A DNA stretch of 64,000 nt from Escherichia phage teqhad. A program made the position numbers and the translations under genes. The first letter of the stretch is position 1. Every line of letters starts with the position of its first letter. The stretch lies in sequence record NC_054933.1; one strand, given 5' to 3'. Below are positions 16,048-36,995 of this stretch, piece by piece. The notes below the pieces were generated by a model, which did not search any database, was not told the origin of the DNA, and saw only the letters and a list, made by a program, of their open reading frames with translations.

Positions 16048-16048
16048 A

Positions 16049-18140: not shown

Positions 18141-18165
18141 GATAGCCTCCGTATACTTCAGAAGC

Positions 18166-18196: not shown

Positions 18197-18207
18197 AACT
18201 TTTTGAA

Positions 18208-18390: not shown

Positions 18391-18398
18391 ATTAATTC

Positions 18399-19014: not shown

Positions 19015-19022
19015 ATCTTTGT

Positions 19023-19686: not shown

Positions 19687-19694
19687 AATTTTCC

Positions 19695-20036
19695 TCAATC
19701 ACAAGATGTAGATGAACAACTAGAATCACAAGAACTTCCGCATGAATCACCTGCCCATACATGAACAGGAACATTAGTATCATATGAATCAGAACTAGAC
19801 TGTGTATTCTGTGTGTTAGATGATGTAGTAGGTACTGACCAGCGCCAAGGATTTTTATAATATTCTTGGGCTTCTTCATAAGTCATAGTAACTGCTTCTA
19901 CTGTTCCATCTCCCATATAAACATATTCAACTACAGTTAAAGGGAGATAGTCATTTGAAATAGGAACTACACCTTCCCCAGGAGTTGTAGAGAAAAAATC
20001 CGTAAAGAAACTTTTAAACCAATTAAAGATAAACAT
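19695..20036 (-). CDS. hypothetical protein with Cys/Ser-rich C-terminal tail (113 aa)
   Basis: C-terminus ...[19 protein letters not shown]. Confidence 0.5.
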
Positions 20037-20242
20037 TACAAAAAGCCTCTTTTGAATTCAACTTGTTTATCGCCATAATCATATCGAATCTCTGCATTAA
20101 ATTCGACAGAGCCATCTGCGTACATCATAAATGAATGCACAACAACTTCTGTAGACCATGGTTGTAGTTCATATTTCTTCATTACATGCCGTGAAATGAT
20201 AATATCTAAATCTTCATTTGGTTTAATCCAGCGATTTAACAT
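20036..20242 (-). CDS. hypothetical protein (68 aa)
   Basis: Track ORF; GAGGAG SD; early promoter upstream. Confidence 0.5.
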   Translation of the reverse strand: MLNRWIKPNEDLDIIISRHVMKKYELQPWSTEVVVHSFMMYADGSVEFNAEIRYDYGDKQVEFKRGFL

Positions 20243-20266
20243 AGTGCTCTCCTCTATAAGATAATT

Positions 20267-20298
20267 CTATTATACCATACTCATTGTGGAAAGTAAAC
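20267..20298 (-). promoter_or_regulatory. T4-type early promoter
   Basis: Minus strand GTTTACTTTCCACAATGAGTATGGTATAAT. Confidence 0.55.
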
Positions 20299-20303
20299 CG
20301 GTA

Positions 20304-20335
20304 AAATGAAAAAGGACTCCCGAAGGAGTCCTTGA
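20304..20335 (-). terminator. intrinsic terminator (GGACUCC-UUCG-GGAGUCC plus U-tract) downstream of soc
   Basis: Minus-strand RNA AAGGACUCCUUCGGGAGUCCUUUUUCAUUUU. Confidence 0.6.
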
Positions 20336-20339
20336 ATTA

Positions 20340-20576
20340 TTAACCACCTATTTCTGTTGGCGTAAACATTGCAGCATTCTTAGTTTTCCAGTCAGCTGCA
20401 TCAGAAACTACAGTAGAATATGCCGCCTTTTCAGAAGGAAAGGTCTGATAATGAGAATCTGCAATACGATGCTCGTTAGAATAGATTTCAAACGGAACAG
20501 AAACTTCCATACCTTTAACTTCTTTGCCTTCACCCGCTGGATGAGTAAAGGTCTTGATGTTAACGAAACCACCCAT
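20340..20576 (-). CDS. soc: small outer capsid protein Soc (78 aa)
   Basis: ...VNIKTF...HYQTFPSEKAAYSTV... matches the remembered T4 Soc; late promoter upstream. Confidence 0.8.
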   Translation of the reverse strand: MGGFVNIKTFTHPAGEGKEVKGMEVSVPFEIYSNEHRIADSHYQTFPSEKAAYSTVVSDAADWKTKNAAMFTPTEIGG

Positions 20577-20607
20577 AATAAACTCCTTTATTGTTTAATT
20601 ACAGGTG

Positions 20608-20615
20608 TATTTATA
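20608..20615 (-). promoter_or_regulatory. late promoter TATAAATA upstream of soc
   Basis: Plus-strand tatttata, i.e. TATAAATA on the coding strand about 30 nt upstream of the soc ATG. Confidence 0.6.
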
Positions 20616-20785
20616 TCAGTCTTCAATGAAAACTTGTGCCAGGAATTCGTGTTCATCTTGAATTTGTTTATATAAAGCCATTACAGCATTTATATTAGAG
20701 CTATCTACTTTAAGTTGATAAGCATACCACTCGTGTAAATTAATTAAAGCTTTTTGACGTCTAATAAATTCTTCTTTGGATATTT

Positions 20786-20986
20786 TCATTTTGAATGCTC
20801 TATAATTAATTTTAAGGCTTTTTCACTGACAAAAATTTCATCAGGACCTTCTTCTACAACCCAATCAACCGTACGAAGCTGATTAGATAAGAGCTCACAT
20901 ACGAGCTCCTTGTCATAATCTTTAAATAGCTGGTCAATACGTTTCTTGCGGGCTTTCTTAAGCTGGCGTTTATTTAAACGAGCCAT
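20786..20986 (-). CDS. hypothetical basic protein (66 aa)
   Basis: Track ORF; its start codon overlaps the gene 56 stop. Confidence 0.45.
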   Translation of the reverse strand: MARLNKRQLKKARKKRIDQLFKDYDKELVCELLSNQLRTVDWVVEEGPDEIFVSEKALKLIIEHSK

Positions 20987-21504
20987 TAATAGCCTCTGTC
21001 TTGACGAGCGAAATTTTCAGCATTTTTCAGATAATAAAGTTTAAAGATTTCTTCAGCTGACATTCCAAGAGCAATGAATTTATTCATGAAAAAGTGAAAT
21101 TGATCAATCAGTTCAAATTTAATTTCAAGTTGATCTTCAGGAGATAAATCTTGAATTTTCTTGGATTGCATTTCAGCATAACGTTTCTTCCAAGGTTTCC
21201 ATACAGCAGAAGCTTCTTTTTCACCATTACTCATACCACCAAGAGAAGTATATAGCTCGCGAGTTTCGTCTGCGATATAATCGTCTTGGTTTCGCAACCA
21301 AGCAAGAACTTCTCCTGCGGTTTCAAGTGAATCAGGATGACGATTTGTTTCTGGTTTATCATTAGCCAAACGAATCTGTAAATGCCGCTGCATGTCAAGC
21401 ATAACTTGTAGTGGGTCAATATTGTGCATAATATTCTCAGCATATGCACGATTTGCTTTATCAACACCTTCGATCAAATGAGCACATTCATTAAAGTGAG
21501 CCAT
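20986..21504 (-). CDS. 56: dCTP pyrophosphatase gp56 (MazG-like, 172 aa)
   Basis: MAHFNECAHLIEGVDKANRAYAENIMHNIDPLQ...; the ATG at 21504 has AAGGAAA SD, so the longer track ORF is an N-terminal over-extension. Confidence 0.85.
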   Translation of the reverse strand: MAHFNECAHLIEGVDKANRAYAENIMHNIDPLQVMLDMQRHLQIRLANDKPETNRHPDSLETAGEVLAWLRNQDDYIADETRELYTSLGGMSNGEKEASAVWKPWKKRYAEMQSKKIQDLSPEDQLEIKFELIDQFHFFMNKFIALGMSAEEIFKLYYLKNAENFARQDRGY

Positions 21505-21575
21505 TATTTTTCCTTTCAATTCATGGGTTAGTAGATTAATTATACAATAAATATATAAAGCAATAAGGAGGACAT

Positions 21576-21776
21576 ATGGTACAAAAATTAATGGCACTTG
21601 TTAATGCCATCAAAGGTAATAAAAAGCGTATAGCTTTTACTATTTCTGCTATGGTAGGAATTTTACTCTGGAACTTTATTTTATCACCTGTTGCAATTGC
21701 ACATGGTATTAATATTCCAGTAGTTACTCTTGATACATTCGTAGATTTAGCATTTGCTTTAGTTGGGTTAATTTAA
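21576..21776 (+). CDS. small membrane protein on the plus strand (66 aa, two predicted TM segments)
   Basis: AAGGAGG SD 4 nt before the ATG; hydrophobic; convergent with gene 61. Confidence 0.45.
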   Translation: MVQKLMALVNAIKGNKKRIAFTISAMVGILLWNFILSPVAIAHGINIPVVTLDTFVDLAFALVGLI

Positions 21777-22801
21777 ATCTTAGCATATTTAGATAGCCGC
21801 ATTTTAGCCATCAACCCCTGGGCAATATTATTTTTCATATATTCCATAATTTGTTCAGGGGTTGCACCTTCCTTTCTAATCATATCATTAACATCTTTTG
21901 ATTTCCAGGGAGATTTATCCCAAAACATAACCCTTTCTCCTGCATCAACCAATTTAGTCATTCGTTTAATAGTGTCAGGGTGACGAGGTTCATTATCTAA
22001 AACCCACACACGTCTATCTTTAAATGGAACAACTTCTAGGTCTAATTGACCACCCGTAATAGCTATACCATTTTCAATAAAAAGTGAATCTATAGGTCCT
22101 TCTAGAACATATACATCACCATCTTTAACTCGTTCGACTCCATATATTTTTGTTGCCTCAGGATAAGCTTTAATGGTGATATATTTTTGAGGAGCATCTT
22201 TCTTTAATGCACGTCCTTGAAAAGACTCAGCTTTTCCGTTAGCATTATAAATTGGAATAACAAGACGAGGCTCAGGTATTTCCTTTTTATATGTTCCCGG
22301 TGCTATGCTATTAACCAATTTAGGCCATTCGGTTGTAAACCAAAGATATTTCCATTTATCCTTTGGAATACAACGAGCTTTTACATATTTTATAATTGGA
22401 TGGTCTTCCGCCAGTTTATCTAATCTAATACATGACGGAAGAAATTTAATTATTTTCTTCTCGGGTTGTTTAGGAAGTTCTTTAGGTTTTTCTACTGGAC
22501 GACTTTTACCTTTTTCTTTTCTTATTTCAAAGATATACTCACGATATAAATCAGGTTCAAACTCCTTTAAATATATTCCGATTGGTGCATGATAGTTACA
22601 GTTATAACAATGAATATTTCCTTCATTATTATCACCATAATACCATCCACGAGCTTTATTCTGGTCGGTTTTTGAATCTCCACAAACAGGGCATCTAAAC
22701 CGCAATTTAAAAGTTGAACTATTATTTACTTGTGTGAATTTAGGTAAATGAGCTAATGCACGGTATGCAAATTCATTATCAATCCAAGGTATTGATGACA
22801 T
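21773..22801 (-). CDS. 61: DNA primase gp61 (342 aa)
   Basis: Zn-ribbon CPVCGDS...CYNC plus TOPRIM region; 342 aa as T4 gp61. Confidence 0.9.
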   Translation of the reverse strand: MSSIPWIDNEFAYRALAHLPKFTQVNNSSTFKLRFRCPVCGDSKTDQNKARGWYYGDNNEGNIHCYNCNYHAPIGIYLKEFEPDLYREYIFEIRKEKGKSRPVEKPKELPKQPEKKIIKFLPSCIRLDKLAEDHPIIKYVKARCIPKDKWKYLWFTTEWPKLVNSIAPGTYKKEIPEPRLVIPIYNANGKAESFQGRALKKDAPQKYITIKAYPEATKIYGVERVKDGDVYVLEGPIDSLFIENGIAITGGQLDLEVVPFKDRRVWVLDNEPRHPDTIKRMTKLVDAGERVMFWDKSPWKSKDVNDMIRKEGATPEQIMEYMKNNIAQGLMAKMRLSKYAKI

Positions 22802-22803
22802 TT

Positions 22804-22968
22804 TTACTCTTCTTTTTCTTTAGATTCCTCTTTTTTCTTTTTAGGAATCTGTTCAGGACCTTTATTTACTACAGCGCCTGATGTTGTTCCAGTAGAGATA
22901 TTTTCAGGACTACCACCTGAATCTCCAGCGACCATATCTTCTTTGATAAATTCTTTATATGTTTTCAT
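22804..22968 (-). CDS. small hydrophilic protein (54 aa)
   Basis: Hand-translated MKTYKEFIKEDMVAGDSGGSPENISTG...; its start lies inside repeat copy 1. Confidence 0.35.
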   Translation of the reverse strand: MKTYKEFIKEDMVAGDSGGSPENISTGTTSGAVVNKGPEQIPKKKKEESKEKEE

Positions 22969-22969
22969 A

Positions 22970-23326
22970 TTAACCTCTATTCATAAAAGCATTAAAAATT
23001 TGGTCATCAATAGATAGTGCAGTAATATTTTCTGCATCATTTAGCAAATCATTAATTTCATCAGATAGCATAACACATGTACCTTTATTTCCTGTAATTG
23101 TTACTGCGCAATTACGAACGTTTTCTTTATTAAATTTTAGGTTAATATTTTCGTAATGAAAATCCTTTAATGCTGAATATATTTTTAAAATAAAATTGTC
23201 TTTTACTACAATAAACCCAACCTCACTATTAAAACGTGGTTCATGGAAACTGTAATAAACCTTTTCATCTATAAAATCGTATGAAATTTTTTCCATTTTT
23301 AAATATGAAAATTCAGAACTATACAT
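22970..23326 (-). CDS. 61.1-like hypothetical protein (118 aa); paralog of the C-terminal half of the next gene
   Basis: Ends ...SIDDQIFNAFMNRG; GFIVVKDNFILKIY aligns to GGIFVKDNRITRIIY in 23328..23954. Confidence 0.55.
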   Translation of the reverse strand: MYSSEFSYLKMEKISYDFIDEKVYYSFHEPRFNSEVGFIVVKDNFILKIYSALKDFHYENINLKFNKENVRNCAVTITGNKGTCVMLSDEINDLLNDAENITALSIDDQIFNAFMNRG

Positions 23327-23327
23327 A

Positions 23328-23954
23328 TTAATCTCTATTCATAAAAGCATTAAAAATTTGGTCATCAATAGAAACATTTACTTTAGACTGTTTTTCAGAT
23401 GGCAATTCATATCCACATATTACAATTTTATGATCAATATCAAAATACACAGAAGCAATATGATTAATGCTGTTTTCAGTAAAGTCTAAATCAACATCAA
23501 TATCTTTTTGACCAAAGCCCAAAGGATAAATAATGCGAGTAATTCGATTATCTTTAACAAATATTCCACCGACATACTCTGTGCTGCGTTTAAAGTCTAC
23601 ACGCCGACGAAATGAAAAATATTCAGGCTCTTTATGAGCTCGGCTCATAGGGCACAACGAATAACTAGAATAAGAGATGTCAAATCCTACGCCTTCAATA
23701 TGAACTAAATTGTCATGATTAAACCAATTATAATCATATGCCAAGTCCATTAGATTGTCATATGTGAAAGGCACCGGATTAACATCATTGGTCACAAGCA
23801 TATAATTAGCAACTGCTATAATTTCATTATTTTTAACGAATACAAACCGTGATTGATGCGAATGACCTGGACCCGCGTTTTCACGATTAATGATATAACA
23901 CTGGGCACCTTTATATTTGTATGTATCTTTGCACTTGTGCATTTGATAGAGCAT
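23328..23954 (-). CDS. 61.2-like hypothetical protein (208 aa)
   Basis: Ends ...SIDDQIFNAFMNRD; AGGTGA SD. Confidence 0.55.
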   Translation of the reverse strand: MLYQMHKCKDTYKYKGAQCYIINRENAGPGHSHQSRFVFVKNNEIIAVANYMLVTNDVNPVPFTYDNLMDLAYDYNWFNHDNLVHIEGVGFDISYSSYSLCPMSRAHKEPEYFSFRRRVDFKRSTEYVGGIFVKDNRITRIIYPLGFGQKDIDVDLDFTENSINHIASVYFDIDHKIVICGYELPSEKQSKVNVSIDDQIFNAFMNRD

Positions 23955-24247
23955 TATTCACCTACCACTTCAGCGATGATATTTTTATTATTAAAGTTTT
24001 TATCGCAATACAGAACATAATTATACTGCATTACACCACCAGACTTAAGCTGTTTTTGCACTTCGGCTTTCATTTCAGGACGATCGCGCTCAACGATATT
24101 CATAATATCTGCTTCAATTTGGGTTTCAACCTCAGTCTGATCAGCAGTCATAGACCATTCGCACAAATCTTTATCATAACCTGCCATAGCAGGCTGAGCA
24201 GCACAAGAAGCTAAAGCAAAAATTGCAGCAAAGATAAATTTTTTCAT
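23954..24247 (-). CDS. sp: Spackle-like periplasmic protein (97 aa, signal peptide)
   Basis: Signal peptide MKKFIFAAIFALASCAAQPAMA; 97 aa as T4 sp; position between 61.2 and 61.4. Confidence 0.6.
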   Translation of the reverse strand: MKKFIFAAIFALASCAAQPAMAGYDKDLCEWSMTADQTEVETQIEADIMNIVERDRPEMKAEVQKQLKSGGVMQYNYVLYCDKNFNNKNIIAEVVGE

Positions 24248-24305
24248 GATAATCTCCTCAGTAGTTTATGTTTATAATATCTCAATTTCCAATAAAAGTA
24301 AACAG

Positions 24306-24563
24306 TTATTTTAAAACTTCTGCATAATCACATGTTACAAACTGTTTCTCTAGCTTGACGATTTTACGAAAATACCTTTTGCATTGACGAATCTGCCGCT
24401 TCGTAGGGCGAACAGCAAACTTAATAAATTCCACTCGACCAAATGGAGGGCTTTCTTCTGCTGGAATATCTAACACCAATTCCCACGTATCTGCAATAAG
24501 TGCTTTGAATTGCGTATTTTTCCTGGCGTTATACGGAGTAGGTTTAAATAAAACAATATGCAT
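24306..24563 (-). CDS. 61.4-like small protein (85 aa) adjacent to dmd
   Basis: GAGGAT SD; TAATG coupling to dmd. Confidence 0.5.
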   Translation of the reverse strand: MHIVLFKPTPYNARKNTQFKALIADTWELVLDIPAEESPPFGRVEFIKFAVRPTKRQIRQCKRYFRKIVKLEKQFVTCDYAEVLK

Positions 24564-24564
24564 A

Positions 24565-24747
24565 TTATCCTCGGCAATCTACTTCACATACTTTCTTGTC
24601 ATCAATGAAAGCTTTAACTAATGCTTTATTAACTTCAGCATATTGAGTAGTAGCCCATTGAACGTCATCTTTCATCATTGTGATTTCTTTAGTAAACATG
24701 CTTTCATTCTTAAACCACCCCATAAAAACTACCTTTACCAATTCCAT
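24565..24747 (-). CDS. dmd: Dmd (60 aa)
   Basis: MELVKVVFMGWFKNESMFTKEITMMKDDVQWATTQYAEVNKALVKAFIDDKKVCEVDCRG matches my memory of T4 Dmd; the track ORF is extended 5 codons at the N-terminus. Confidence 0.75.
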   Translation of the reverse strand: MELVKVVFMGWFKNESMFTKEITMMKDDVQWATTQYAEVNKALVKAFIDDKKVCEVDCRG

Positions 24748-24774
24748 AACAATCTCCCCCATTTAACCAACAAG

Positions 24775-24807
24775 ACTACTATACCATAGTCTTGTCAGCT
24801 TGTAAAC
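24775..24807 (-). promoter_or_regulatory. T4-type early promoter upstream of dmd
   Basis: Minus strand GTTTACAAGCTGACAAGACTATGGTATAGT. Confidence 0.5.
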
Positions 24808-26234
24808 TAAAATTTTAATTCATTTGCCAAAGCATCTAACTGGGCTCGAGTGGATTCATTTCTTTGATAGCGATTCTGCTCAGCCTGAATCTGTTGTGAA
24901 CCTGCTACTTCGTTCACTTCAGTTGGAGTAGAATCTTGCTCAATTTCTACCCATTTCTGATTTCCTTTTTGAACACCCATCAAAAACTTATTCCATTTAT
25001 TCTTATCGCCATATCGTGATTTGATTTGCTTAATGAGTTGTTGTTCAGCAGCTGCTAACTCCTCGGTTTCAATGACCGCAAGCATAAAATCGGCTGTTGC
25101 TGGAAGACCGGCAGATTCTGCAATATCGCTCATGTTAACATCAGAAGAATCCCAAGCTTGTTTGCCGACCTGTGCTGCAGTCCAAAGAACAGTTTCGGTT
25201 TCAACAGCCAGAGCACGCAATTCCTCTGCAATAGCTTTAACAGTCGTGTAACTATTTTCTGAATAAACTCTAATGCGGCAAGATTTACAAATACCCAGAT
25301 AGTCAACAATAATGATTGTTGGAACAAAATTCTTCTTGAGCTTCAATTCGTTTAAAAGAGATCGAAATGTATTAGCGTCTGCTCCACCAGTAGGATACTG
25401 TTTAACGATTAAACGACCGAGAGTAGATTTCTCACGCCATTTTTCCATTTTTCCTTTATACTCAGCGTAAGAAATATGCCCATCATCAATGTCATCAAGA
25501 GAAACATCAAGCATATTAGCATCAATACGTTTAGCACAGACTTCTTCTGCCATTTCCATGGAAATGTAAAGAACATTATGTCCAAGCTGCAAATAATCTG
25601 CTGCTAATGAACACAATCCTAATGACTTACCAACGTTAACGCCAGCCATTAAAACGTTCAGCGTTCCAGTCTCAGCTCCGCCTTTAGTAATTTTGTTTAG
25701 AATTCTGAGTTTAAATGGAACCTTACGAGCTTTATTCATATAAGATAGCCAACGTGCTTCGTAGTCATCCATCCAATCATGACCAACGTAGCTATCAAAT
25801 GAAATTGATAATGCTTGACGCATAATGTCAGGAATAGCACCAACATCCGGCATTTTCTTATTTCGTTTTTCCGGAGGAAGCTCAGCATTAGTTTGAATTT
25901 CGATTATTTTAGACGTAGCATTAAACATCGCCCTTTGCTGAACATATTTTTCTGTTTCTTTTATTAACCAACTGTGGTCTTCCGGAGAATCAGCCAGTTT
26001 TGAAATAAGTGTTTTTACACCAGAATATTCTGTTTCAGTAAATGAACTATTTTCTAATGCAACATTTAACGCATTAATAGATGGAACGCTATGATACTCA
26101 TTAACATGAGATTTAATTAATTTGAATGTATTTTTAGCTGGACCACTTTCAAAATATTCTGAATCCATATATGGCCAAACTTTTGAAAAATAAGCTTGAT
26201 CAAATATGAGATGAGAAAGAATAATTTCTACCAC
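24807..26234 (-). CDS. 41: replicative DNA helicase gp41 (DnaB-like, 475 aa)
   Basis: Walker A GVNVGKS; 475 aa; GTG start 5 nt after AAGGAG. Confidence 0.92.
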   Translation of the reverse strand: MVEIILSHLIFDQAYFSKVWPYMDSEYFESGPAKNTFKLIKSHVNEYHSVPSINALNVALENSSFTETEYSGVKTLISKLADSPEDHSWLIKETEKYVQQRAMFNATSKIIEIQTNAELPPEKRNKKMPDVGAIPDIMRQALSISFDSYVGHDWMDDYEARWLSYMNKARKVPFKLRILNKITKGGAETGTLNVLMAGVNVGKSLGLCSLAADYLQLGHNVLYISMEMAEEVCAKRIDANMLDVSLDDIDDGHISYAEYKGKMEKWREKSTLGRLIVKQYPTGGADANTFRSLLNELKLKKNFVPTIIIVDYLGICKSCRIRVYSENSYTTVKAIAEELRALAVETETVLWTAAQVGKQAWDSSDVNMSDIAESAGLPATADFMLAVIETEELAAAEQQLIKQIKSRYGDKNKWNKFLMGVQKGNQKWVEIEQDSTPTEVNEVAGSQQIQAEQNRYQRNESTRAQLDALANELKF

Positions 26235-26243
26235 ACTTACTCC

Positions 26244-26588
26244 TTAAAAGAATTTAAATTTTTTCTTTGACCTTTTATTAAATGCATCTTGCAGTTGCAT
26301 TGTAATACATTTTTCTACATGAGGAGCTAACTCAGCTTTTCTTTCTTGGTCAAGAACAGCAAAGTCCATTACAACCTTTCCATCAACCCAATCCAGTTTA
26401 GTTACATACACTATATGTGTAGAACCATCTTCTAGTTTAATGACAATCTCCTGGATAACATTTTCCATAGCGGATTTAATTATCTTAAGAGATTCATTAA
26501 AAAGACGTTCTTTTCTTTCTTCTTCCCCCTCCGAAGAGGGGGATTCATCGATAATTTCTAGATCTAAATCTAAATCATCTTTATTCAT
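26244..26588 (-). CDS. 40: gp40-like protein (114 aa)
   Basis: Track ORF 26244..26606; the ATG at 26588 overlaps the uvsX stop; size matches T4 gp40. Confidence 0.55.
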   Translation of the reverse strand: MNKDDLDLDLEIIDESPSSEGEEERKERLFNESLKIIKSAMENVIQEIVIKLEDGSTHIVYVTKLDWVDGKVVMDFAVLDQERKAELAPHVEKCITMQLQDAFNKRSKKKFKFF

Positions 26589-27762
26589 TAAATTCTTCCA
26601 TATCACTTAACTGTTCGAGGTCAGTTTCTAAATCAGCTGCTGATTTACTTTTACTTTCTGGAGATTTAAATTTTTCAACCTTTGAGTTAATCAATTCATC
26701 AACTTCAGCTTCAACAATTTCATTACTATCAATAGCACCTAACTGATAAGCACGTTTAATAGCATCTCGGAATGGTTGATGTTTAAATAAAGGACCCCAG
26801 AATGTAGTGCAGTTGGTATCTTTTGCACGCCAAGATTTTTCTTCACGAATCATCTCGCCGGTTTCTTCATCAAGAAATTCACGAGCATACCAGCCATTTT
26901 TAGGTTTTACCACGAATCCTAATTCTAGAGCCATATCTAACAATCCAGAATAAGGATCAATACCACCGTCAAATTTAACATCAATAAAGAATTTACTTTT
27001 TTCTTTAACGGTACGAGATTTTTCTACATTTAGAACAAATTGATACCCCTGAAGATCAGAACCATCTTTAATCTGACGTTTACCGATAATGAATACAGTA
27101 TCAGCCGAATACATTACGCCTGTACCACCTGTCATCACGGTTTTACTAAACATTTCAATTGTTTCAATTGTATGGTTAACCGCAACACATGGAATATTTT
27201 TAATGCTAAAATAAGGAGTAACAATACGGAATAATGACTTCAGTGATTTAGCACGAGTCATATCTGCCACAGATTTTTCATTCAAGGCATCTTCAGTTTC
27301 TTTCTTAGAAGCCATATTACCAATTGAGTCGATGAATACTATAACTTTTTCACCACGCTCAATAGCTTCAAGCTGATTCACCATATCAATTTTCAGCTGT
27401 TCAACTGACTGAATTGGCGTATGAATTACTCGTTCCGGGTCAACTCCCATGGATCGCAAATAAGCTGGAGTAATACCAAATTCACTATCATAGAATAGAC
27501 AAACCGCGTCAGGATATTTGTTCAAATATGCCGCAACCATAGTCAAAGACATATTTGATTTAAAGTGTTTAGAAGGACCTGCAAAAATAGTTAAACCAGA
27601 CTGCATGCCGCCATCAATCGCACCAGAAATAGCAATATTAAGCATTGGAATTTTTGTACGAATTACATCCTTTTCATTAAAGAATTTAGATGTAGTCAGT
27701 TCAGCAGTCATTTTAGAAGTGGAAGCTTTAATCAAACGGGATTTTAAATCTACAATAGACAT
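26581..27762 (-). CDS. uvsX: UvsX recombinase (RecA-like, 393 aa)
   Basis: Walker A GPSKHFKS and RecA fold motifs; acidic C-terminus. Confidence 0.92.
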   Translation of the reverse strand: MSIVDLKSRLIKASTSKMTAELTTSKFFNEKDVIRTKIPMLNIAISGAIDGGMQSGLTIFAGPSKHFKSNMSLTMVAAYLNKYPDAVCLFYDSEFGITPAYLRSMGVDPERVIHTPIQSVEQLKIDMVNQLEAIERGEKVIVFIDSIGNMASKKETEDALNEKSVADMTRAKSLKSLFRIVTPYFSIKNIPCVAVNHTIETIEMFSKTVMTGGTGVMYSADTVFIIGKRQIKDGSDLQGYQFVLNVEKSRTVKEKSKFFIDVKFDGGIDPYSGLLDMALELGFVVKPKNGWYAREFLDEETGEMIREEKSWRAKDTNCTTFWGPLFKHQPFRDAIKRAYQLGAIDSNEIVEAEVDELINSKVEKFKSPESKSKSAADLETDLEQLSDMEEFNE

Positions 27763-27839
27763 TCATTTTTTCCATAGGCATCATTATATTTTCCTCACTG
27801 GTTAAAGATAGAGTAATTATAACACAATAAATTTAGGCA

Positions 27840-28688
27840 TTAATCAACTGCTATTGGATGAATAGCATTAAACTTATGAAATGCTTCTGATTTTTCTTTA
27901 CGTGAAACGCACATGCGAAGAACCTTTAATGGTTCGTCTTCTTCACCCAACGATTTTCGTTTTTCAATATTAGAAGTTTTCCAACGAGCTTGCTCTGGAA
28001 ACTCTCTATTAATCTGCTCAAGCGCTCTATTATGTTTAGAATTACTACGAATTGAACTGCACCCGCCAGGAGCTTGTGCTTTTCCAGATACAACTAGATA
28101 TTTGAACAAGGCCAAATGCGGATAACCTTGATTAATTAAATTGAGAAATGCATACATATCTTCGCATAAATCAATTTTTCCATACCCAATTTGTTCTGTC
28201 GTAAGTTTTCCGAGGTCATACCATGTATTCGTGAATCCATATGAATTTTCACGATAATTACCCCAAGATGAAGTAATTTTAAAAATAGGTAGACGAGCAT
28301 GGCCATGATAATACCCGCAATCCATGGCATCCTCAACATATTGAATCAATTCATAGAACTGTTCACGAGTCAATTGATTGACTTTATCTACGCAACGACG
28401 ATCATCTCTTTTTCGCATTGAACTCATACGAATAGTAGTATCATCGTCAATCATCCAGATTCGTTGACCTGCATACATATCGGTAATTGCTTTACGAGTA
28501 CCGGCAATTCCGTTTACATCATCAGGAATAGTTATAATTTTAGCTCTAGACCCATAAGCGTCATGATAAGCTTTTTCTTCATGTTCACGCACTACAATAT
28601 GCGGTTCATAATCAGTCGGAAACATATCAAGGGCAGAAACTGCCCCGACACGTTGATAACTTGGAATTACGAATTGAATCATTTCCAC
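27840..28688 (-). CDS. putative DNA glycosyltransferase (282 aa) at the beta-gt position
   Basis: Lies between uvsX and 42; has a hydrophobic DDD motif (IWMIDDDTTI) and does not resemble the 351 aa T4 beta-gt that I recall. Confidence 0.5.
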   Translation of the reverse strand: MEMIQFVIPSYQRVGAVSALDMFPTDYEPHIVVREHEEKAYHDAYGSRAKIITIPDDVNGIAGTRKAITDMYAGQRIWMIDDDTTIRMSSMRKRDDRRCVDKVNQLTREQFYELIQYVEDAMDCGYYHGHARLPIFKITSSWGNYRENSYGFTNTWYDLGKLTTEQIGYGKIDLCEDMYAFLNLINQGYPHLALFKYLVVSGKAQAPGGCSSIRSNSKHNRALEQINREFPEQARWKTSNIEKRKSLGEEDEPLKVLRMCVSRKEKSEAFHKFNAIHPIAVD

Positions 28689-29419
28689 TCACCTTTATAG
28701 TCTTTTTTCACAATATGAGTTTCGCCAGTATTCCACCAATGATCAACCAAATAAAAATGACGAGAATATACATGAAGACTTCCAACATTCCATATAATAG
28801 AACCTGCTTTATACTGACGAGTTGAATCGCCTGCATTCAAATCAGATACTAATTTATCTAATACGTATTTTTGCCATGCATAATCATTACGGAATCCGAA
28901 GACCACGTCATTTGAGCGCATGTTAACAACCGCATTAATTTTCTTGTCACGAATCAGATACTGTACGGTATTCGTACACATGAAATCTGACATACCATCT
29001 TTATTGTAGTCAAACTGCATAGATGGACGAGTATAAATCATGATACCACGCCGAGAATCAGGATTTTGACCAAGTTCAGCTAAACACATGTCATATTGAG
29101 CATAGTTATCTTCTGACCAGATAGCCCAACCATAATTCGAGTTAATTTCACCTTTAGAAGATGCTACTTGTTGCCAAATCTTCGGTGTTTCACCTGGAAT
29201 ATCTTTAACAAACAAGCTCTTAGATTTATACCATTCAAGTTCACGCTGAATGTATTCATCATTAAGAGCGCCAAAAATAAACGGTTCATCTGCTACAAAT
29301 GATGCGCCAATAATTTCAATAGTTTTAACACCAGTTTTATCAACTACGAAATCTTTTTCTTTTAATGCAAGCCCCAAATGAAGACGGATTTCTTCAACTG
29401 TCATAGAGTCACTAATCAT
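28679..29419 (-). CDS. 42: dCMP hydroxymethylase gp42 (246 aa)
   Basis: Thymidylate-synthase-like fold; 246 aa as T4 gp42. Confidence 0.9.
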   Translation of the reverse strand: MISDSMTVEEIRLHLGLALKEKDFVVDKTGVKTIEIIGASFVADEPFIFGALNDEYIQRELEWYKSKSLFVKDIPGETPKIWQQVASSKGEINSNYGWAIWSEDNYAQYDMCLAELGQNPDSRRGIMIYTRPSMQFDYNKDGMSDFMCTNTVQYLIRDKKINAVVNMRSNDVVFGFRNDYAWQKYVLDKLVSDLNAGDSTRQYKAGSIIWNVGSLHVYSRHFYLVDHWWNTGETHIVKKDYKGEWK

Positions 29420-29445
29420 TTAAACCTCAATTGATGCATTCATAT

Positions 29446-29577
29446 TTAAATTGTAACAGTAATAAACCCCACCCCTATGATAAGAGTTGGAATCATAGCA
29501 GGAACTGTTACGCTATAGTATATACTTATTATAACCATCAAGATTAAAAGCAATGCTGCTATAATTTTGCTTTTCAT
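29446..29577 (-). CDS. small membrane protein (43 aa)
   Basis: Hand-translated MKSKIIAALLLILMVIISIYYSVTVPAMIPTLIIGVGFITVTI; ATGA overlap with the imm stop. Confidence 0.35.
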   Translation of the reverse strand: MKSKIIAALLLILMVIISIYYSVTVPAMIPTLIIGVGFITVTI

Positions 29578-29825
29578 TCTTTCTCTCTGATGATAATTAC
29601 CTGATTTGGCTGTGCAGACTTTTTAGTTTCACCAGCAATTGACCAAATAAATGTAATAAACCAACCAATAATTGACCAGTTAAACAGTAAAGATGTGAAA
29701 AAGATTCCTACTGTCGATTTTGACCCACGCATCAAGGCGATAAACCATGGAAGCATGTATATAATAATAGCCAACACACCTGAAACTAAAACCATAAAAA
29801 TTGAACCTGCTACTAAAGTTTCCAT
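29574..29825 (-). CDS. imm: Imm superinfection immunity membrane protein (83 aa)
   Basis: Two TM helices; 83 aa; directly upstream of gene 42. Confidence 0.7.
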   Translation of the reverse strand: METLVAGSIFMVLVSGVLAIIIYMLPWFIALMRGSKSTVGIFFTSLLFNWSIIGWFITFIWSIAGETKKSAQPNQVIIIREKE

Positions 29826-29832
29826 CTTTTCC

Positions 29833-30213
29833 TCACTTAGTCAAATTTTTTACGCATGAATTATAAGAATTCACTACATACTCCATCGGAGCATTTTTAC
29901 CAGTACGCCATTGGTAATTATTAGCCCAATTAGCCCAAATTTCGGCGCAGTAGTTTTCAATTTTTTCTTCGCGTGTAATTACATCAGAATTACGATATGC
30001 TTGAGCAGATTCATCTGGACGAATAGCTTCGTCAAAATTCGCCTGCATTTGTTCGACTGTTTGCTTTGGAGCTTCTTTATAACACTTGACATTAGGATTA
30101 TAAAATTTGCTTGAACAGTTTACAATTTTTCCTACATCAGACTGATTTACTACCGGTCCTTGAGCTACACAACCAGTAAGACCTAATGCAATAACCAAAA
30201 TAGCGATTTTCAT
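29833..30213 (-). CDS. putative lipoprotein (126 aa)
   Basis: Signal peptide with lipobox LGLTGC. Confidence 0.55.
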   Translation of the reverse strand: MKIAILVIALGLTGCVAQGPVVNQSDVGKIVNCSSKFYNPNVKCYKEAPKQTVEQMQANFDEAIRPDESAQAYRNSDVITREEKIENYCAEIWANWANNYQWRTGKNAPMEYVVNSYNSCVKNLTK

Positions 30214-30223
30214 AATAATTTCC

Positions 30224-30460
30224 TCAAATGCAAGTAGTAATTACTCCAGTAGTGCTTATGCAGGTATTACCCATTTGCACACCTAAAGATCCATTTGTAT
30301 TCACATGAAGATTATCATCAATTTTTGTTGATACTTTACCATTCATGTGAATAACAGTATTAGATTCAATCACATTCTGAGTATCATTTTCAATATCAAT
30401 AAATGAAACAGCTGCTAATGCAACTAAACACACTGCTAAGCAACCATAAACAATTTTCAT
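30224..30460 (-). CDS. small secreted protein (78 aa)
   Basis: Track ORF starts at TTG in the conserved leader; ATG at 30460 after GGAGAATAAA; N-terminal signal-like segment. Confidence 0.5.
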   Translation of the reverse strand: MKIVYGCLAVCLVALAAVSFIDIENDTQNVIESNTVIHMNGKVSTKIDDNLHVNTNGSLGVQMGNTCISTTGVITTCI

Positions 30461-30491
30461 TTTATTCTCCAAATCCGTATTAGTTGATAGT

Positions 30492-30524
30492 TGTATAGTA
30501 CCACAGAGGAACAGTCTTGTAAAC
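30492..30524 (-). promoter_or_regulatory. T4-type early promoter
   Basis: Minus strand GTTTACAAGACTGTTCCTCTGTGGTACTATAC. Confidence 0.55.
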
Positions 30525-30605
30525 AGTTTTGTGAAAAATTTTTTAGGGAATTCTAAAGGTCCAGAATCATCTGTTTTTCATAAGTATAGATTTATATTAC
30601 TTGTA

Positions 30606-30630
30606 TGAAAAAGGGACCCGGAGGTCCCTA
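30606..30630 (-). terminator. intrinsic terminator (GGGACC-UCCG-GGUCCC plus U-tract) downstream of gene 43
   Basis: Minus-strand RNA AGGGACCUCCGGGUCCCUUUUUCAU. Confidence 0.6.
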
Positions 30631-30641
30631 GATTTATTCTA

Positions 30642-33338
30642 TCAGCCAAACAGGAAGTCTAACGAAGCTTTTTCTTCATAGTCCATACCAGCCGATTCAC
30701 ACATACCCGCAAGCGGTTTAACAAACGATTTTTGGAACAAAGTTGAGTAGTCAATCCAAGACAGTACATCAGAACGAATTTCTTTTGGAAGTTCTGTGCC
30801 CGACGGCCAAGCAATGCACTTGTCACCAAATGGATTTCCTTCACGCAATGGAAGAACCATTACCTTATTTCCATCCAAAATTGGAGCTACACCCAGACCA
30901 CTAACAGCTCGACGATAAGTTAGCACACCACGAATATGGAACGGGCATTTAAATCCTGGCCAACCTTTATCATCATATTTCGCTATATCGTTCGCAGTTT
31001 TTACTTCAGCAATAACTTTATAGTCAAGTTGACGATATTCTTTCTCGAAGTTTTTGTAATATTCTTGGACAGACTCTTCACCTTCCTGAAGAATACGACG
31101 AATACTTTCTTCGAGAGCTTCTTGCACTGCTTTTGGTGTTGAACTCTGCTGAGTTTCCATACCCATGATTTTTAGATGCGGTTCAGCAAATCGCTTATCT
31201 TCCATATCATAAACGTTCAGAGCATAACGCTTTTTCGCTTTCCAAAATCCGCCAATGCCCTTTGAACCAAGTGGAGGGCAAGAAATAGCTTCACGGTCCA
31301 TATGCATCAGATGCTCGCGGTTATTCATATAATCACATAACTCACGATATGCAACATCAATCATAGGTTCCATCTTTTTCTTACCGAACTGATTCATGAA
31401 TTCAACTAAATCGTTCTGCTCTTTGAATCGGTCAAGACCAACTTTTTCAATAACTTTATCTACGCAAACATATACCGAATCAGTATCACCTGCCGCGATG
31501 AAATCTTCACCATTAGTTCCGCATACTTTATTCAGATATTCATTAATTTTACGAGCAATCCACTGAATACCGACTTGACCAAAAATTGTGATAGCAGTAG
31601 CATTTCGCAAATCATAGTAACGGAAATGAATATTACCAAGAGCACCATAAAGACTGTTAATAAGAATTTTACGGTTCAGCTGATTTGTATTAGCAAGTGT
31701 AGCTGCTTTTTCACATTCCTCAATCAGACTATTGAGAACAGATTCAGTATAATTCGATAGTTCATTTAAGAAATCATCACTGAACTTAACATATCGTTCA
31801 ACTTCTGGTTTAGTTGAACAGGACCCTGCGCCTTTCATAATAATCTTTTTAATAGCTTCGGCATTCATTTCTTCAGCGAACATTTTCTTTTTCCAATCTT
31901 TACGCTGGAAAAATACTTTAGCGATTTCCTTTGGAATGATACCTTCTTGATGCTTATCATACATCCATCCATTCGGAGAACAAGAATATTCATCACTCGG
32001 TTTAGGAGCTGTTCCTGCGATATATTCATGAATTGGATAAACTTTAAACTGCCCACGAATAGTCTCAGGACTAATGTTAACCTGACGAATAATGCTCGGA
32101 TACAAAGACGTCAAGTCAAAACTCATAATATATCGACGAGCAATTGGTTTAGGTTCAAATACAAATGCACCCGGAAAACTCTGTTTAACGTGCGAACCTT
32201 GTTGAGGAATAACCTTGTGTTCACCTTTCAATGAGTTAAAAATAATAGCATCCCAGGTTTTAATAGGACTCATTACACCAGAAAAAGGCATTTTAGCGTA
32301 ATAAGACATACTTAAAACTAGATCGATAAACCCGCGAATTTTATCAATTGCTTGAACTGATTCTACGTCAATGATGTTATAACTAATGTATCGTTGATGA
32401 TTAGTCTCACGAAGTTTATTAATAGGACCGTCGTATGGTAATTTACCTTTTTTGGTTTCATGTTGAGCAACTGATTCCAAAGAGAATGACGGCAAATTAG
32501 TAAATGCGAATTTCTTATACAAATCTAAATAATCAAGAATAGATACGCCATCAATAGAATAAATTTCTTTGCTACCGTACATATTTTGGATAAGTTTAGA
32601 TTTTACTCGACCGATTGGAGAGAAGCGTTTCATACTACGTTCACCGAGAACCATTTTAACGCGATTCATGATATACGGAACGTCAAATCCCTCAATATTC
32701 CAACCAGTAAAAATAGCAGGTCGTTTCTGTTCCCAGAGATTGATATATTCCATGAGCATATCACGCTCATTATCGAATGGCATATAAATTACTCGGTCAA
32801 GAATTTCTTGAGGAACTTCATCACCACCTTCACAGTCAAGCTTAGCAGCTAACTTTGCATCCCATTTTGATACTGAACCATACATTGAATTCAAAAGGTC
32901 GAAAACATAAAAACGATCATCAATTGAATCGTAATGAGTGATAGCATCAATTTCATATTCAGCTTTCATTGGGTCAGGAAATTTATCACCAGTAACCTCA
33001 ATGTCACAGTTAGCTACACGAACAAATTTTCGGTCATAAACAATTTCTGAACCGTATGTATCACTGATATAAGCGAGTTTAAAATCGTTCATACCGAGAG
33101 CTTCGAGACCGATGTCTTCCATTCGTTTCATCCAATCTCGAGCATCTTTCATTGATGGAAATTTTTGAGGAGCGCAGTTTTTACCATAGATGTCTTTGTA
33201 CTTTGACTCTTCCTTACAATGCCTAAACATAGTTGGAAGATATTCTACTTCACGAGTACGTTCCTTTCCATTTTCATCAATATAACGTTCAACAATATTA
33301 TTTCCGACTGTTTCAATAGAGATATAAAATTCTTTCAT
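30642..33338 (-). CDS. 43: DNA polymerase gp43 (family B, 898 aa)
   Basis: 898 aa; exonuclease and polymerase motifs (...YGDTDS...). Confidence 0.95.
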   Translation of the reverse strand: MKEFYISIETVGNNIVERYIDENGKERTREVEYLPTMFRHCKEESKYKDIYGKNCAPQKFPSMKDARDWMKRMEDIGLEALGMNDFKLAYISDTYGSEIVYDRKFVRVANCDIEVTGDKFPDPMKAEYEIDAITHYDSIDDRFYVFDLLNSMYGSVSKWDAKLAAKLDCEGGDEVPQEILDRVIYMPFDNERDMLMEYINLWEQKRPAIFTGWNIEGFDVPYIMNRVKMVLGERSMKRFSPIGRVKSKLIQNMYGSKEIYSIDGVSILDYLDLYKKFAFTNLPSFSLESVAQHETKKGKLPYDGPINKLRETNHQRYISYNIIDVESVQAIDKIRGFIDLVLSMSYYAKMPFSGVMSPIKTWDAIIFNSLKGEHKVIPQQGSHVKQSFPGAFVFEPKPIARRYIMSFDLTSLYPSIIRQVNISPETIRGQFKVYPIHEYIAGTAPKPSDEYSCSPNGWMYDKHQEGIIPKEIAKVFFQRKDWKKKMFAEEMNAEAIKKIIMKGAGSCSTKPEVERYVKFSDDFLNELSNYTESVLNSLIEECEKAATLANTNQLNRKILINSLYGALGNIHFRYYDLRNATAITIFGQVGIQWIARKINEYLNKVCGTNGEDFIAAGDTDSVYVCVDKVIEKVGLDRFKEQNDLVEFMNQFGKKKMEPMIDVAYRELCDYMNNREHLMHMDREAISCPPLGSKGIGGFWKAKKRYALNVYDMEDKRFAEPHLKIMGMETQQSSTPKAVQEALEESIRRILQEGEESVQEYYKNFEKEYRQLDYKVIAEVKTANDIAKYDDKGWPGFKCPFHIRGVLTYRRAVSGLGVAPILDGNKVMVLPLREGNPFGDKCIAWPSGTELPKEIRSDVLSWIDYSTLFQKSFVKPLAGMCESAGMDYEEKASLDFLFG

Positions 33339-33394
33339 AGATATTCCTTAGTTTATAGCCCGAGTTATTAGGCTCTTGATATATTATACTCCAA

Positions 33395-33416
33395 ATAAGG
33401 GGCCGAAGCCCCTTTG
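33395..33416 (-). terminator. hairpin GGGGC-UUCG-GCCCC
   Basis: Immediately 3' of the 33419..33655 ORF. Confidence 0.45.
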
Positions 33417-33418
33417 CT

Positions 33419-33655
33419 TTAAATTTCTATTGTACGACGCGATATAACGGACTTGCCATCTGTATTTGTGGTTTTGATAATCGCATGAAATGCGCGTTGG
33501 CGTGGGTAAACTAATCGTTGGAATTCTTTTTGGAATTCTATTTGTTTATCTTCCGGGAGGTCAAAAACCAGTTGGGTAGAAGACAGACCATATGTTTGTT
33601 TTAGATTTTCGAATATTAGAAAAGCTTCGGTAAACTGAATCTCTGATTGTGTCAT
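33419..33655 (-). CDS. hypothetical protein (78 aa) between regA and 43
   Basis: Track ORF 33419..33706; an internal ATG is chosen to avoid overlap with regA. Confidence 0.4.
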   Translation of the reverse strand: MTQSEIQFTEAFLIFENLKQTYGLSSTQLVFDLPEDKQIEFQKEFQRLVYPRQRAFHAIIKTTNTDGKSVISRRTIEI

Positions 33656-33665
33656 ATAATTTACC

Positions 33666-34034
33666 TTAATTACCAATCGTATATTTAGGAACGAGTTTCC
33701 ATTCATGTTTTTGTTTAAAAGAAATAACTCGGAAGTTATTAGTTAAATCTTTCATAAAAGTTCTTTGTCCAGGAACGATTTCAATCAGTCCCCAATCTTC
33801 TAACAGCCATGCAATCGAATCACGACGAACTTCATCTTCTTCTGTCATTTCAACTTGACGGCCATCCATACGAAGCATTTCTTTAAAATGAACGATATAG
33901 TATAGTCCTTTTTTCTGAAGAATATGACAGGACTGATACAGAACTTTATCTTTATTATTAGCAATTCCCATACGAGTCAAAGTTTCTTTTACTTTCAGAA
34001 AATCTTCAGGTTTTTTAAGAGTAATTTCAATCAT
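33666..34034 (-). CDS. regA: RegA translational repressor (122 aa)
   Basis: 122 aa, MIEITLKKPEDFLKVKETLTRMG... Confidence 0.85.
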   Translation of the reverse strand: MIEITLKKPEDFLKVKETLTRMGIANNKDKVLYQSCHILQKKGLYYIVHFKEMLRMDGRQVEMTEEDEVRRDSIAWLLEDWGLIEIVPGQRTFMKDLTNNFRVISFKQKHEWKLVPKYTIGN

Positions 34035-34035
34035 T

Positions 34036-34599
34036 TTACCATTCCAATGCTAGTTTTTTGAGTTGTTTCTGTTCTTTTACGTTCTTAGTCACTTCTTTTA
34101 AAAAATCATCCGTGACTAATCCTTTAAGTTCTTTTAATACTAAAGGTAGTTTTCCATTTTTAGTAAGAATTGATTTATAGTTAATTGCATCATTTGTGTT
34201 AACTTGATACCGCTTAGCAAGTAACTTAATAATCAATACTTCGGTGGAATCTTCAACTAGTTTTGCCCATTTACCATATCTTTTACCACGAGGAACTGCA
34301 GCCATCAGATAATTAAAATGGGCTTCATCGCTTAAACCTGATCCAATTAAATTCATAGCATATACAGCTGGCATGCACTCCGGAAATTGTGATAATGCAT
34401 TTTCAACCATGAATTTTGAATAATCTTTTTGAGCAATAGAGCATTTAGTTTTATTATTAATAGCTCCAATTATTTCAAAAAACTCATTTTCAGCTTTTTC
34501 TTTAAAAGAATCAGCAGCGGATTGGACAGCTGTCCAATCTTTTGAATACCAAGCAACTTGATGCTCGTTTAATTGAATATCATCTTCAAATAAGCTCAT
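34036..34599 (-). CDS. 62: clamp loader small subunit gp62 (187 aa)
   Basis: Internal ATG ([22 protein letters not shown]...) chosen over the longer track ORF. Confidence 0.85.
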
Positions 34600-34600
34600 A

Positions 34601-35560
34601 TCACTTCCACTGCATTTCACATGCTAATTGAATGAAAAGATAAGCTAAATGCAATTCAGTATTAGCTGCAATACCATGATACTGATTATTTTCGCCGACA
34701 ATTTCGTACATACGAATAATACTCTGTGGAGTTACACGTGAATAGATTTCTTCGGCAAGTTTACCCACGAACCACGAATAATCGGCTGCATATTTTGGTG
34801 CTAAAGCTCTGAGTTGTTTAACATCTTTATTTTTGAGAGACTCAAGAACATCATCAATAGCACCACGATCGTTAGTAACCAGTGATAAAATACCAGCATC
34901 CAAAACACCTTTAGATGAATAACTATCGAGCTCGCCAATAGTTTTACGAAAATCAGGAAAATTCTTTTTAACCAAAGCTGCTACAACTTTCATATCAGCT
35001 ATAGCAATTCCTTCATGCTTACAGATTTCAGTCAATCGACGAATCATCTGCTTCATCATTTCAATTTTATCTTCATCGGTCGGTTGACCGAATGTAATAA
35101 CTCGACAGCGTGACTGAAGTGGTTTAATAATACCATCAATATTGTTAGCAGTAATAATAATACTACAGTTTGAACTATAAGCTTCCATAAAGGAACGAAG
35201 ATGTCGCTGAGACTCTGCTAACCCTGAGCGGTCAAATTCATCAATAACGATTACTTTTTGACGACCATCAAATGAAGCGGCGCTGGCAAAATTAGTCAAA
35301 GGACCACGAACGAAATCAATTTTACAATCTGATCCATTCACAAACATCATATCAGCATTTACATCATGACACAATGCTTTTGCTACAGTTGTTTTACCTG
35401 TTCCTGGAGAAGGAGAATGAAGAATAATATGTGGAATCTTACCTTTACTTGTAATAGATTTAAAGGTTTCTTTATCAAAGGCGGGAAGAATACATTCATC
35501 GATAGTAGATGGACGATATTTCTGTTCAAGAATGTGTTCTTTTTCATTTACGGTAATCAT
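34601..35560 (-). CDS. 44: clamp loader large subunit gp44 (AAA+, 319 aa)
   Basis: Walker A GTGKTT; the second ATG follows GAGGAAATT. Confidence 0.9.
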
Positions 35561-35591
35561 AATTTCCTCATTCAAGTTTTAGTGTAAATTA

Positions 35592-35610
35592 TAAAGGGCC
35601 GAAGCCCTCT
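35592..35610 (-). terminator. hairpin GGGC-UUCG-GCCC downstream of gene 45
   Basis: Minus-strand RNA AGGGCUUCGGCCCUUUAUAAUUU. Confidence 0.5.
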
Positions 35611-35611
35611 A

Positions 35612-36298
35612 TTAAAAATCGTGGGTAGAATCAGCTTCAAGAGCTACTACATAATTCGCATGTTCACCTTCAAATTTAGCAGCACCTTGTTTACCTTTTG
35701 CCCAGAGCAGAAGTTTATAATTTCCTGGTTGCATTTTCATATTTGCCATATTGATAATGAAATTAAATGTATTTTCACCATCATAATCACCAAGAGTCAA
35801 AGAATATTTAACACGGGTCAGAGCAGAATCTTCTACTTTATTAAAACCGTTAATTACGATTTTACCTTCTTTTACCGTGATAGCAATTGTATCAATTTGC
35901 AGACCACGAGATACACGCAACAGCTGTTGAAGGTCTTCAGCTTTAATTTCAGTAACAACAGATGCTACCGGGAATGGAATTGGTTTATTAGGAGCAACTA
36001 CTGTACTCGGATCGGCTGCTGGCCAAAAAATTGTTGAACGAGCATCAGCAATTTTAATATTTCCATCTTCTGACTGGGAAATTTCTGCATCATCATTAAC
36101 TAGAGACAGAATACCGAGAAAACCGTTCAAATCGTAAATTGCTACATCAAAATCAATAGTGTCAGAAATATTTGCTTCCGCATAAGTTGTACCATTAACT
36201 GCACGAGTCATAATAAATTGACCTGATTTAAGCATAATACCAGAGTTAATAGTAGCGAAATTTTTAAGCAGAGCAGTAGTATCTTTAGACAGTTTCAT
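35612..36298 (-). CDS. 45: sliding clamp gp45 (228 aa)
   Basis: 228 aa, MKLSKDTTALLKNFATINSGIM... Confidence 0.9.
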   Translation of the reverse strand: MKLSKDTTALLKNFATINSGIMLKSGQFIMTRAVNGTTYAEANISDTIDFDVAIYDLNGFLGILSLVNDDAEISQSEDGNIKIADARSTIFWPAADPSTVVAPNKPIPFPVASVVTEIKAEDLQQLLRVSRGLQIDTIAITVKEGKIVINGFNKVEDSALTRVKYSLTLGDYDGENTFNFIINMANMKMQPGNYKLLLWAKGKQGAAKFEGEHANYVVALEADSTHDF

Positions 36299-36353
36299 GT
36301 AATTTCCTTCAATTCAAATGAGATTTAATTTTATAACTAATTTAATAAAGCAA

Positions 36354-36743
36354 TTAACGATTAAAATCAGCCGCAATTGTTTCCGCAACAATTTGTGCAG
36401 CAACAATTAGACGTTCATCTGCATTACCGCAATAATCATCTTCAAGGCGTTCACCGCATGAAGTCATAATAAATTTAGCACCGGCGTTTAGGGATTCTGT
36501 AGTATGTTTGCGCATTAATTCAATCCATTTATTACTTACTTCACGATCGATAGCTTCATAATACGCATGACGAGCAGGTGCAGATTTAATTTTGTTCTGA
36601 ATAACTTCCATTGCATTATCAGAAAGAGACAAAACCCATGCTCGACGAATTTTATTTTGGTTTTGTGGATTTGATTCAGAACGCACGTGTTTTGGCTGAA
36701 TATCTTTTACATCAACAGTATAATTCACAGTAATTTTAGTCAT
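36354..36743 (-). CDS. rpbA: RpbA-like RNA polymerase binding protein (129 aa)
   Basis: 129 aa ORF directly downstream of gene 45. Confidence 0.65.
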
Positions 36744-36752
36744 AATACACCT

Positions 36753-36944
36753 TTAGTCATAATAATCAGTAACAGTCCAAGCTTCATTTCTATTGGACAT
36801 TATTTTTGTATATTCTGCTTTAAATGCATTCCTAAGCATAGATTCAGTAACTATATGCTCTTCATTAGAAAAATTATTTCTCAGAATATATCGTTTTATT
36901 TCAGGAAAAGTTAATAGATGCTGTCCGGTTGAATATTCTGCCAC
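36753..36944 (-). CDS. 45.2-like small protein (63 aa)
   Basis: Track ORF. Confidence 0.5.
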   Translation of the reverse strand: MAEYSTGQHLLTFPEIKRYILRNNFSNEEHIVTESMLRNAFKAEYTKIMSNRNEAWTVTDYYD

Positions 36945-36954
36945 AGTTCCTCCG

Positions 36955-36962
36955 TATAAATA
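36955..36962 (+). promoter_or_regulatory. late promoter TATAAATA (plus strand) upstream of the HNH endonuclease gene
   Basis: Exact TATAAATA 33 nt upstream of the ATG at 36996. Confidence 0.55.
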
Positions 36963-36995
36963 TGTTTATCACTCGCTGTATCAAAAGGATATGTT

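Follow-up and report, generated by a model that had tools for sequence, protein, structure and literature searches.

Assignment of the gene between gene 42 and uvsX of Escherichia phage teqhad to the T2/T6-type βα-glucosyltransferases

In the 64,000-nucleotide stretch of Escherichia phage teqhad DNA analysed here (the window), the gene lying between gene 42 and uvsX almost surely encodes a β-glucosyl-HMC-α-glucosyltransferase (βα-GT) of the T2/T6 type, a member of the TAGT family with a GT-A fold that puts a further glucose on phage DNA already carrying α-glucose. The assignment is based on identity to the T2 enzyme, family membership, fold, motif and genomic position, together with the co-occurrence of an α-glucosyltransferase (α-GT) gene, the supplier of the acceptor, and the absence of a T4-type β-glucosyltransferase (β-GT) from the 64-kb window. 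The finding is correct yet already known, this being a common gene in its usual position in T4-like coliphages. Published work already covers the gene itself as well as where it sits, its class of fold, what it makes and how it figures in the arms race, and the arrangement is the common one in the genus, so nothing here counts as a discovery. Knowing the gene pair helps annotation and the choice of phages: α-GT with βα-GT, instead of α-GT with β-GT, predicts gentiobiosyl-hmC DNA in a T4-like phage, and gentiobiosyl-hmC in turn predicts how the phage fares against modification-dependent defences: in reported work Brig1 is partly held off, the diglucosyl mark resists BapA, and enzymes of the GmrSD/BrxU type remain effective.

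Identity and genomic position

The predicted protein is identical to the T2 β-glucosyl-HMC-α-glucosyltransferase at 277 of 280 residues (99%), and only H40N, D55G and R106H separate it from the T6 enzyme when lesions specific to individual T6 records are left aside. At the DNA level, megablast matched the gene to 473 phage records, all with at least 80% coverage at 90% identity or higher, many of which carry the label "beta-glucosyl-HMC-alpha-glucosyltransferase"; RB51, RB68 and Ac3 were the best matches at 99.8%, and T2 matched at 97.8%. The PHROG family of that name (PHROG 842) covered residues 2-277 of the 282-residue open reading frame (ORF) at E = 3e-89, and the Pfam TAGT profile (PF20691) aligned to residues 5-209 over its positions 2-205 of 205 with 41.3 bits, the curated gathering cut-off being 27.5 bits. 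The T2/T6-type identity that the first-pass annotation had proposed for the ORF is thereby borne out by 277/280 identity to T2, three substitutions relative to T6 and the PHROG 842 match, with T4 β-GT at chance level in BLASTP.

A six-frame ORF list gives the gene as a minus-strand ORF of 282 codons from a GTG (27840..28688), flanked by uvsX and gene 42 (Table 1), which is how it was first annotated. The ORF and its location hold, but the 5' end was 6 nt too long and the product has 280 residues. Translation almost certainly begins at the ATG at 28682, because annotated homologues begin there (the T2, RB51, NR1, Geo and RB14 records, with a 280-residue product and the N-terminus MIQFVIPSY) and the N-terminal alignment agrees, six of the eight protein-database homologues beginning exactly with MIQF; the in-frame GTG at 28688 was dropped on these same grounds. 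Gene 42, the immediate upstream neighbour, ends in GGT GAG TGG AAA TGA, and the ATG ATT CAA TTC of βα-GT starts inside this end to create an ATGA overlap, which suggests that the gene is co-transcribed and translationally coupled with gene 42. A search around βα-GT for promoters and terminators of its own was uninformative: there were 10 promoter-like sites where 9.5 would be expected and 2 terminator-like sites where 0.9 would be. The order gene 42, βα-GT, uvsX is shared with T2, T6, RB51, NR1 and Geo.

Table 1. Coordinates of the features discussed, in window positions
Feature	Position	Strand	Evidence
βα-GT (ggt / ba-gt), beta-glucosyl-HMC-alpha-glucosyltransferase	27840..28682	-	280 aa from ATG; homologue starts, ATGA overlap
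DDD motif (GAC GAT GAT, D79-D80-D81)	28440..28448	-	sequence; alignment; model strand E74-79
E174-D175 ("ED" in LCEDMYAF)	28158..28163	-	start of helix 174-184
Gene 42, dCMP hydroxymethylase	28679..29419	-	Pfam PF00303, 3.9e-16; gp42 in matching records
uvsX recombinase (downstream landmark)	26581..27762	-	ORF; 98.9% identity to Tequatrovirus uvsX genes
α-GT, DNA alpha-glucosyltransferase	41634..42836	-	Pfam PF11440, E = 3.9e-237, full-length profile; ORF
Cassette replaced relative to T4	27751..28696	-	946 bp without blastn match to T4 NC_000866

The slot differs from that of T4 by a clean exchange of cassettes between conserved flanks. When window positions 26000..30700 were compared with T4 by blastn, homology extended up to 27750, in uvsX, and resumed at 28697 (next to the final 18 nt of gene 42), from where gene 42 is 96% identical to that of T4. 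Between the same flanks T4 carries 1941 bp with b-gt and with segA, which encodes a homing endonuclease, and segA is absent from the cassette in the window. Compared with T4 β-GT (NP_049658, from NC_000866), the window protein gave chance fragments only (BLASTP E = 2.2); PF09198, which T4 b-gt matches at 9.4e-98, did not match it; and neither T4 β-GT nor SegA, run by tblastn over the full 64 kb of the window, gave a match below E = 1.4. Homology to T4 β-GT is ruled out by these three results, and the earlier remark that the protein does not look like T4 β-GT was well founded. The two enzymes nonetheless have much in common. T4 β-GT (b-gt, PF09198, PDB 1JG7) and βα-GT occupy the same genomic slot adjoining gene 42, a synteny that has already been published, and both are inverting users of UDP-glucose that form a β-linkage and act as the "second" glucosyltransferase beside α-GT. 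They differ in fold, GT-B in T4 β-GT and GT-A in βα-GT (PMC13216743 and this analysis), and in acceptor, which is bare hmC for the former and α-glucosyl-hmC for the latter. The α-GT gene itself was described at first pass as T4-like, and this holds; it is a real ORF with a strong match to the α-GT profile (Table 1).

Fold and candidate catalytic residues

An AlphaFold2 model of βα-GT, made from a nine-sequence alignment, had a mean pLDDT of 74.7 and a pTM of 0.75, with low confidence at residues 126-134, 196-211 and 244-246. Its N-terminal half consists of β-strands alternating with helices. A Foldseek search of BFVD returned the βα-GT of Klebsiella phage PKO111 as the top match (1.5e-33), followed by phage proteins with a TAGT domain. 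The fold is that of the GT-A (nucleotide-diphospho-sugar transferase) class with a conserved acidic DxD motif, as in the TAGT family, and the two-Rossmann-domain arrangement of GT-B enzymes was not found in the window protein. Structure prediction and fold comparison, proposed earlier as a check, thus find a glycosyltransferase fold, and one of the GT-A type. In agreement, the T6 enzyme modelled with AlphaFold3 has been classed as GT-A and clusters beside GT2, in contrast to α-GT and β-GT, which are GT-B (PMC13216743).

The hydrophobic DDD motif that had drawn attention to the ORF reads IWMIDDD (residues 75-81) and is of the DxD type, closing a hydrophobic β-strand that the model places at residues 74-79. 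All three aspartates are invariant in the nine aligned homologues, down to an identity of 28% by BLASTP or 32% in the alignment, and general GT-A enzymology predicts the motif to be the site for Mn2+/Mg2+ and the diphosphate of UDP-glucose. In the model, helix 174-184 opens at E174-D175, a pair that is likewise invariant across the alignment, and D175 is a candidate for the catalytic base that an inverting enzyme of GT2-like type would need. Because the family has no solved structure, we can only infer its catalytic residues; phmmer against PDB sequences gave chance matches only (E > 1).

Cellular GT-A enzymes of the GT2 family (BcsA 9fmv, TarP 6h1j, AvpGT 9jma) have the same nucleotide-diphospho-sugar transferase fold as βα-GT and, like it, are inverting and carry a DxD behind a hydrophobic strand. 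TAGT stands for TET-associated glycosyltransferase, a name that refers to a genomic association with TET/JBP dioxygenases, which the model does not require. The window protein resembles the PF20691 family in its GT-A fold, its DxD motif and its above-threshold match to the full profile. It departs from the family in three respects: hmC is made here by gp42 on the nucleotide and not by a TET/JBP dioxygenase on DNA, glucose is added to a sugar that the base already bears, and a basic C-terminal extension is present. These last ~70 residues (210-280; window 27840..28052) extend past the Pfam model and have a pI of 9.6, compared with 5.9 for residues 1-209. R212, F228, P229, E250 and R256 are invariant in this region, which was modelled at low confidence and is possibly a DNA- or acceptor-binding element.

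Predicted DNA modification and its degree

In the pathway that the gene content would support, gp42 produces hm-dCMP, which replication would place in DNA as hmC, and α-GT would attach a glucose taken from UDP-glucose to hmC by an α-linkage, yielding the acceptor for βα-GT. The latter would then use a second UDP-glucose to set a β-1,6-linked glucose on the α-glucose, which results in gentiobiosyl-hmC. The conversion of UDP-α-glucose into such a β-linked product would fit the chemistry of a GT-A enzyme that is inverting, resembles GT2 and has a metal site of the DxD type. The diglucosyl mark would mask α-glucosyl-hmC from defences that read it, among them the glycosylase Brig1 and the deglucosylase BapA, and GmrSD-type enzymes would still see the DNA. 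For the enzyme in the window, both the chemistry and the defence effects are predicted from the literature on its relatives.

The β-glucosyl-HMC-α-GT of T2 and T6 has been identified with PF20691 and converts α-glucosylated cytosine into 5-gentiobiosyl-methylcytosine (PMC13216743, NAR 2026). According to the same study, α-GT or β-GT is paired with TAGT in the vast majority of phages encoding such enzymes and α-GT occurs together with β-GT in only six phages; within Tequatrovirus most phages pair α-GT with TAGT, and the T4 pair is a rarity (PMC13216743). Ten Tequatrovirus phages from Durham with the same gene pair contained hmdC, α-glc-mdC and α-gent-mdC and no β-glc-mdC (PMC13390438, AEM 2026). 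Deletion of ba-gt in T6 left α-glucosyl-hmC only and raised sensitivity to the Brig1 glycosylase (PMC11078745, Nature 2024), and T6 Δg-gt DNA became a substrate of the BapA deglucosylase (2026 preprint, bioRxiv 10.64898/2026.02.25.707755). The first-pass annotation had expected a T2/T6-type enzyme at the β-gt position to give gentiobiosyl-HMC DNA, for which the first three of these sources speak, and to change which host restriction systems can see the DNA, with which the altered response of the T6 mutants to Brig1 and BapA agrees. As position, fold, product and defence are all covered by published work, its proposal is correct and was already established.

The contrast between T2 and T6 in diglucosylation has been known for 60 years. 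Published shares of gentiobiosyl-hmC in total hmC are about 5% for T2 and about 72% for T6, and the two enzymes are ~98% identical to each other. Both resemble the window enzyme closely: that of T2 (e.g. AYD82639.1, XYW65403.1) has 280 residues, lies likewise between gene 42 and uvsX and shows the ATGA overlap, and that of T6, which genetic work has proved necessary for gentiobiosyl-hmC, has the same length and position. From the window to T2 the substitutions are R11H, H40Y and P251S, and the window protein keeps the family-invariant R11. This arginine (codon at window 28650..28652) follows directly on the first β-strand (IPSYxR) and is invariant in the nine-sequence alignment. The R11H probe was identical in all T2 records found (PV958097, MH751506, LC348380, AP018813, NC_054931, PV648363 and PV648364) and the change is also carried by the T2-derived SV76, while R11 is retained in the closest phages outside T2, RB14 among them. 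We therein see a candidate explanation for the low (~5%) diglucosylation of T2, of which no discussion was found in the literature examined.

Two further phages provide points of comparison. The NR1 enzyme differs from that in the window by D24N and H40Y only, and NR1 DNA is about two-thirds gentiobiosyl-mdC (PMC13390438); the Geo enzyme differs at eight positions, and the Geo nucleoside profile is intermediate, at 1:2:2. Since R11 is kept and the enzyme is two residues from that of NR1, we lean towards a high, T6/NR1-like gentiobiosyl level in the window phage. The broader proposition, that variation in βα-GT and not in α-GT or expression sets the degree of gentiobiosylation, that R11H explains the difference between T2 and T6 and that the window phage belongs with the high producers, is put forward tentatively and is rather doubtful as a whole. 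If true, the phage would be of the high-gentiobiosyl T6 type even though its sequence is closest to that of T2. That very closeness, three differences from an enzyme whose phage has only ~5% gentiobiosyl-hmC, could also be taken to mean that the window enzyme is a weakly active βα-GT, leaving the DNA mostly mono-α-glucosylated with a few per cent gentiobiosyl-hmC. We consider this unlikely, as the T2-specific R11H, itself of putative effect, is missing from the window at an otherwise invariant arginine, and NR1, at two residues' distance, has DNA with about two-thirds gentiobiosyl-mdC.

Other readings of the locus and adjoining observations

The protein might instead be a functional analogue of T4 β-GT that β-glucosylates bare hmC directly, as it sits in the β-GT slot and an inverting GT-A enzyme would form a β-linkage with any acceptor. 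This is highly improbable given 99% identity to the T2 enzyme, the lack of β-5-glc-mdC in phages with the same gene pair, in which some 1/4 to 1/3 of hmC is bare (PMC13390438), and the retention of α-glucosyl-hmC alone in T6 Δba-gt (PMC11078745).

Two independent public T6 records have lesions in βα-GT, each a different one. MH550421.1 has a TAG amber at codon 10 (~3952-3954 of the retrieved locus, minus strand), for which reason a 261-residue product from Met20 is annotated there. NC_054907.1 / AP018814.1 (921-1760 of the retrieved locus) lacks 3 nt in frame and with them one aspartate of the DDD motif, the 279-residue product reading IWMIDDTTI. Laboratory stocks can thus acquire damage in βα-GT. 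Since T6 is the phage that textbooks cite for high gentiobiosylation, either the lesion-bearing T6 stocks have drifted or the records contain errors. Neither lesion is present in the window gene, and although these records lend some colour to the idea of a decayed or inactive remnant, that idea is scarcely credible for a full-length ORF with Q10, R11, DDD and all 40 invariant positions intact and with the translational-coupling overlap with gene 42 kept. No direct evidence speaks against the preferred reading, a T2/T6-type βα-GT.

A slippage-prone "contingency locus" in T2 agt has been reported to toggle glucosylation (2025 preprint 10.1101/2025.10.21.683753). In the window, α-gt contains an A7 homopolymer at 42542..42548 on the minus strand (nt 289-295) and an A6 further on, and βα-GT has no such homopolymer tract of 6 nt or longer. 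Directly downstream of α-gt lies an ORF of 207 codons resembling homing endonucleases (40834..41457, minus strand), with matches to PHROG 10820 (HNH endonuclease label, 1e-94) and PHROG 314 ("homing endonuclease", 5e-18) and a Pfam GIY-YIG score of 21.4 bits, just below the 22.6 cut-off; tblastn showed no similarity to T4 SegA.

Another segment without a T4 counterpart in blastn, of ~240 bp, was observed at 30214..30452 in the interval between imm.1 and gene 43. An ORF at 30224..30472 (minus strand) encodes 82 residues with a hydrophobic N-terminus and belongs to PHROG 4189 (unknown function); it corresponds to RB51ncORF048c in RB51 and is present in T2 too. For the 25 kb at 16000..40999 the best full-length public matches were ~96-97% identical (teqhal, Paracelsus, REP1), none being near-identical, compared with 99.8% between the βα-GT gene alone and those of RB51, RB68 and Ac3. 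Judged by these comparisons, the genome is that of a mosaic Tequatrovirus.
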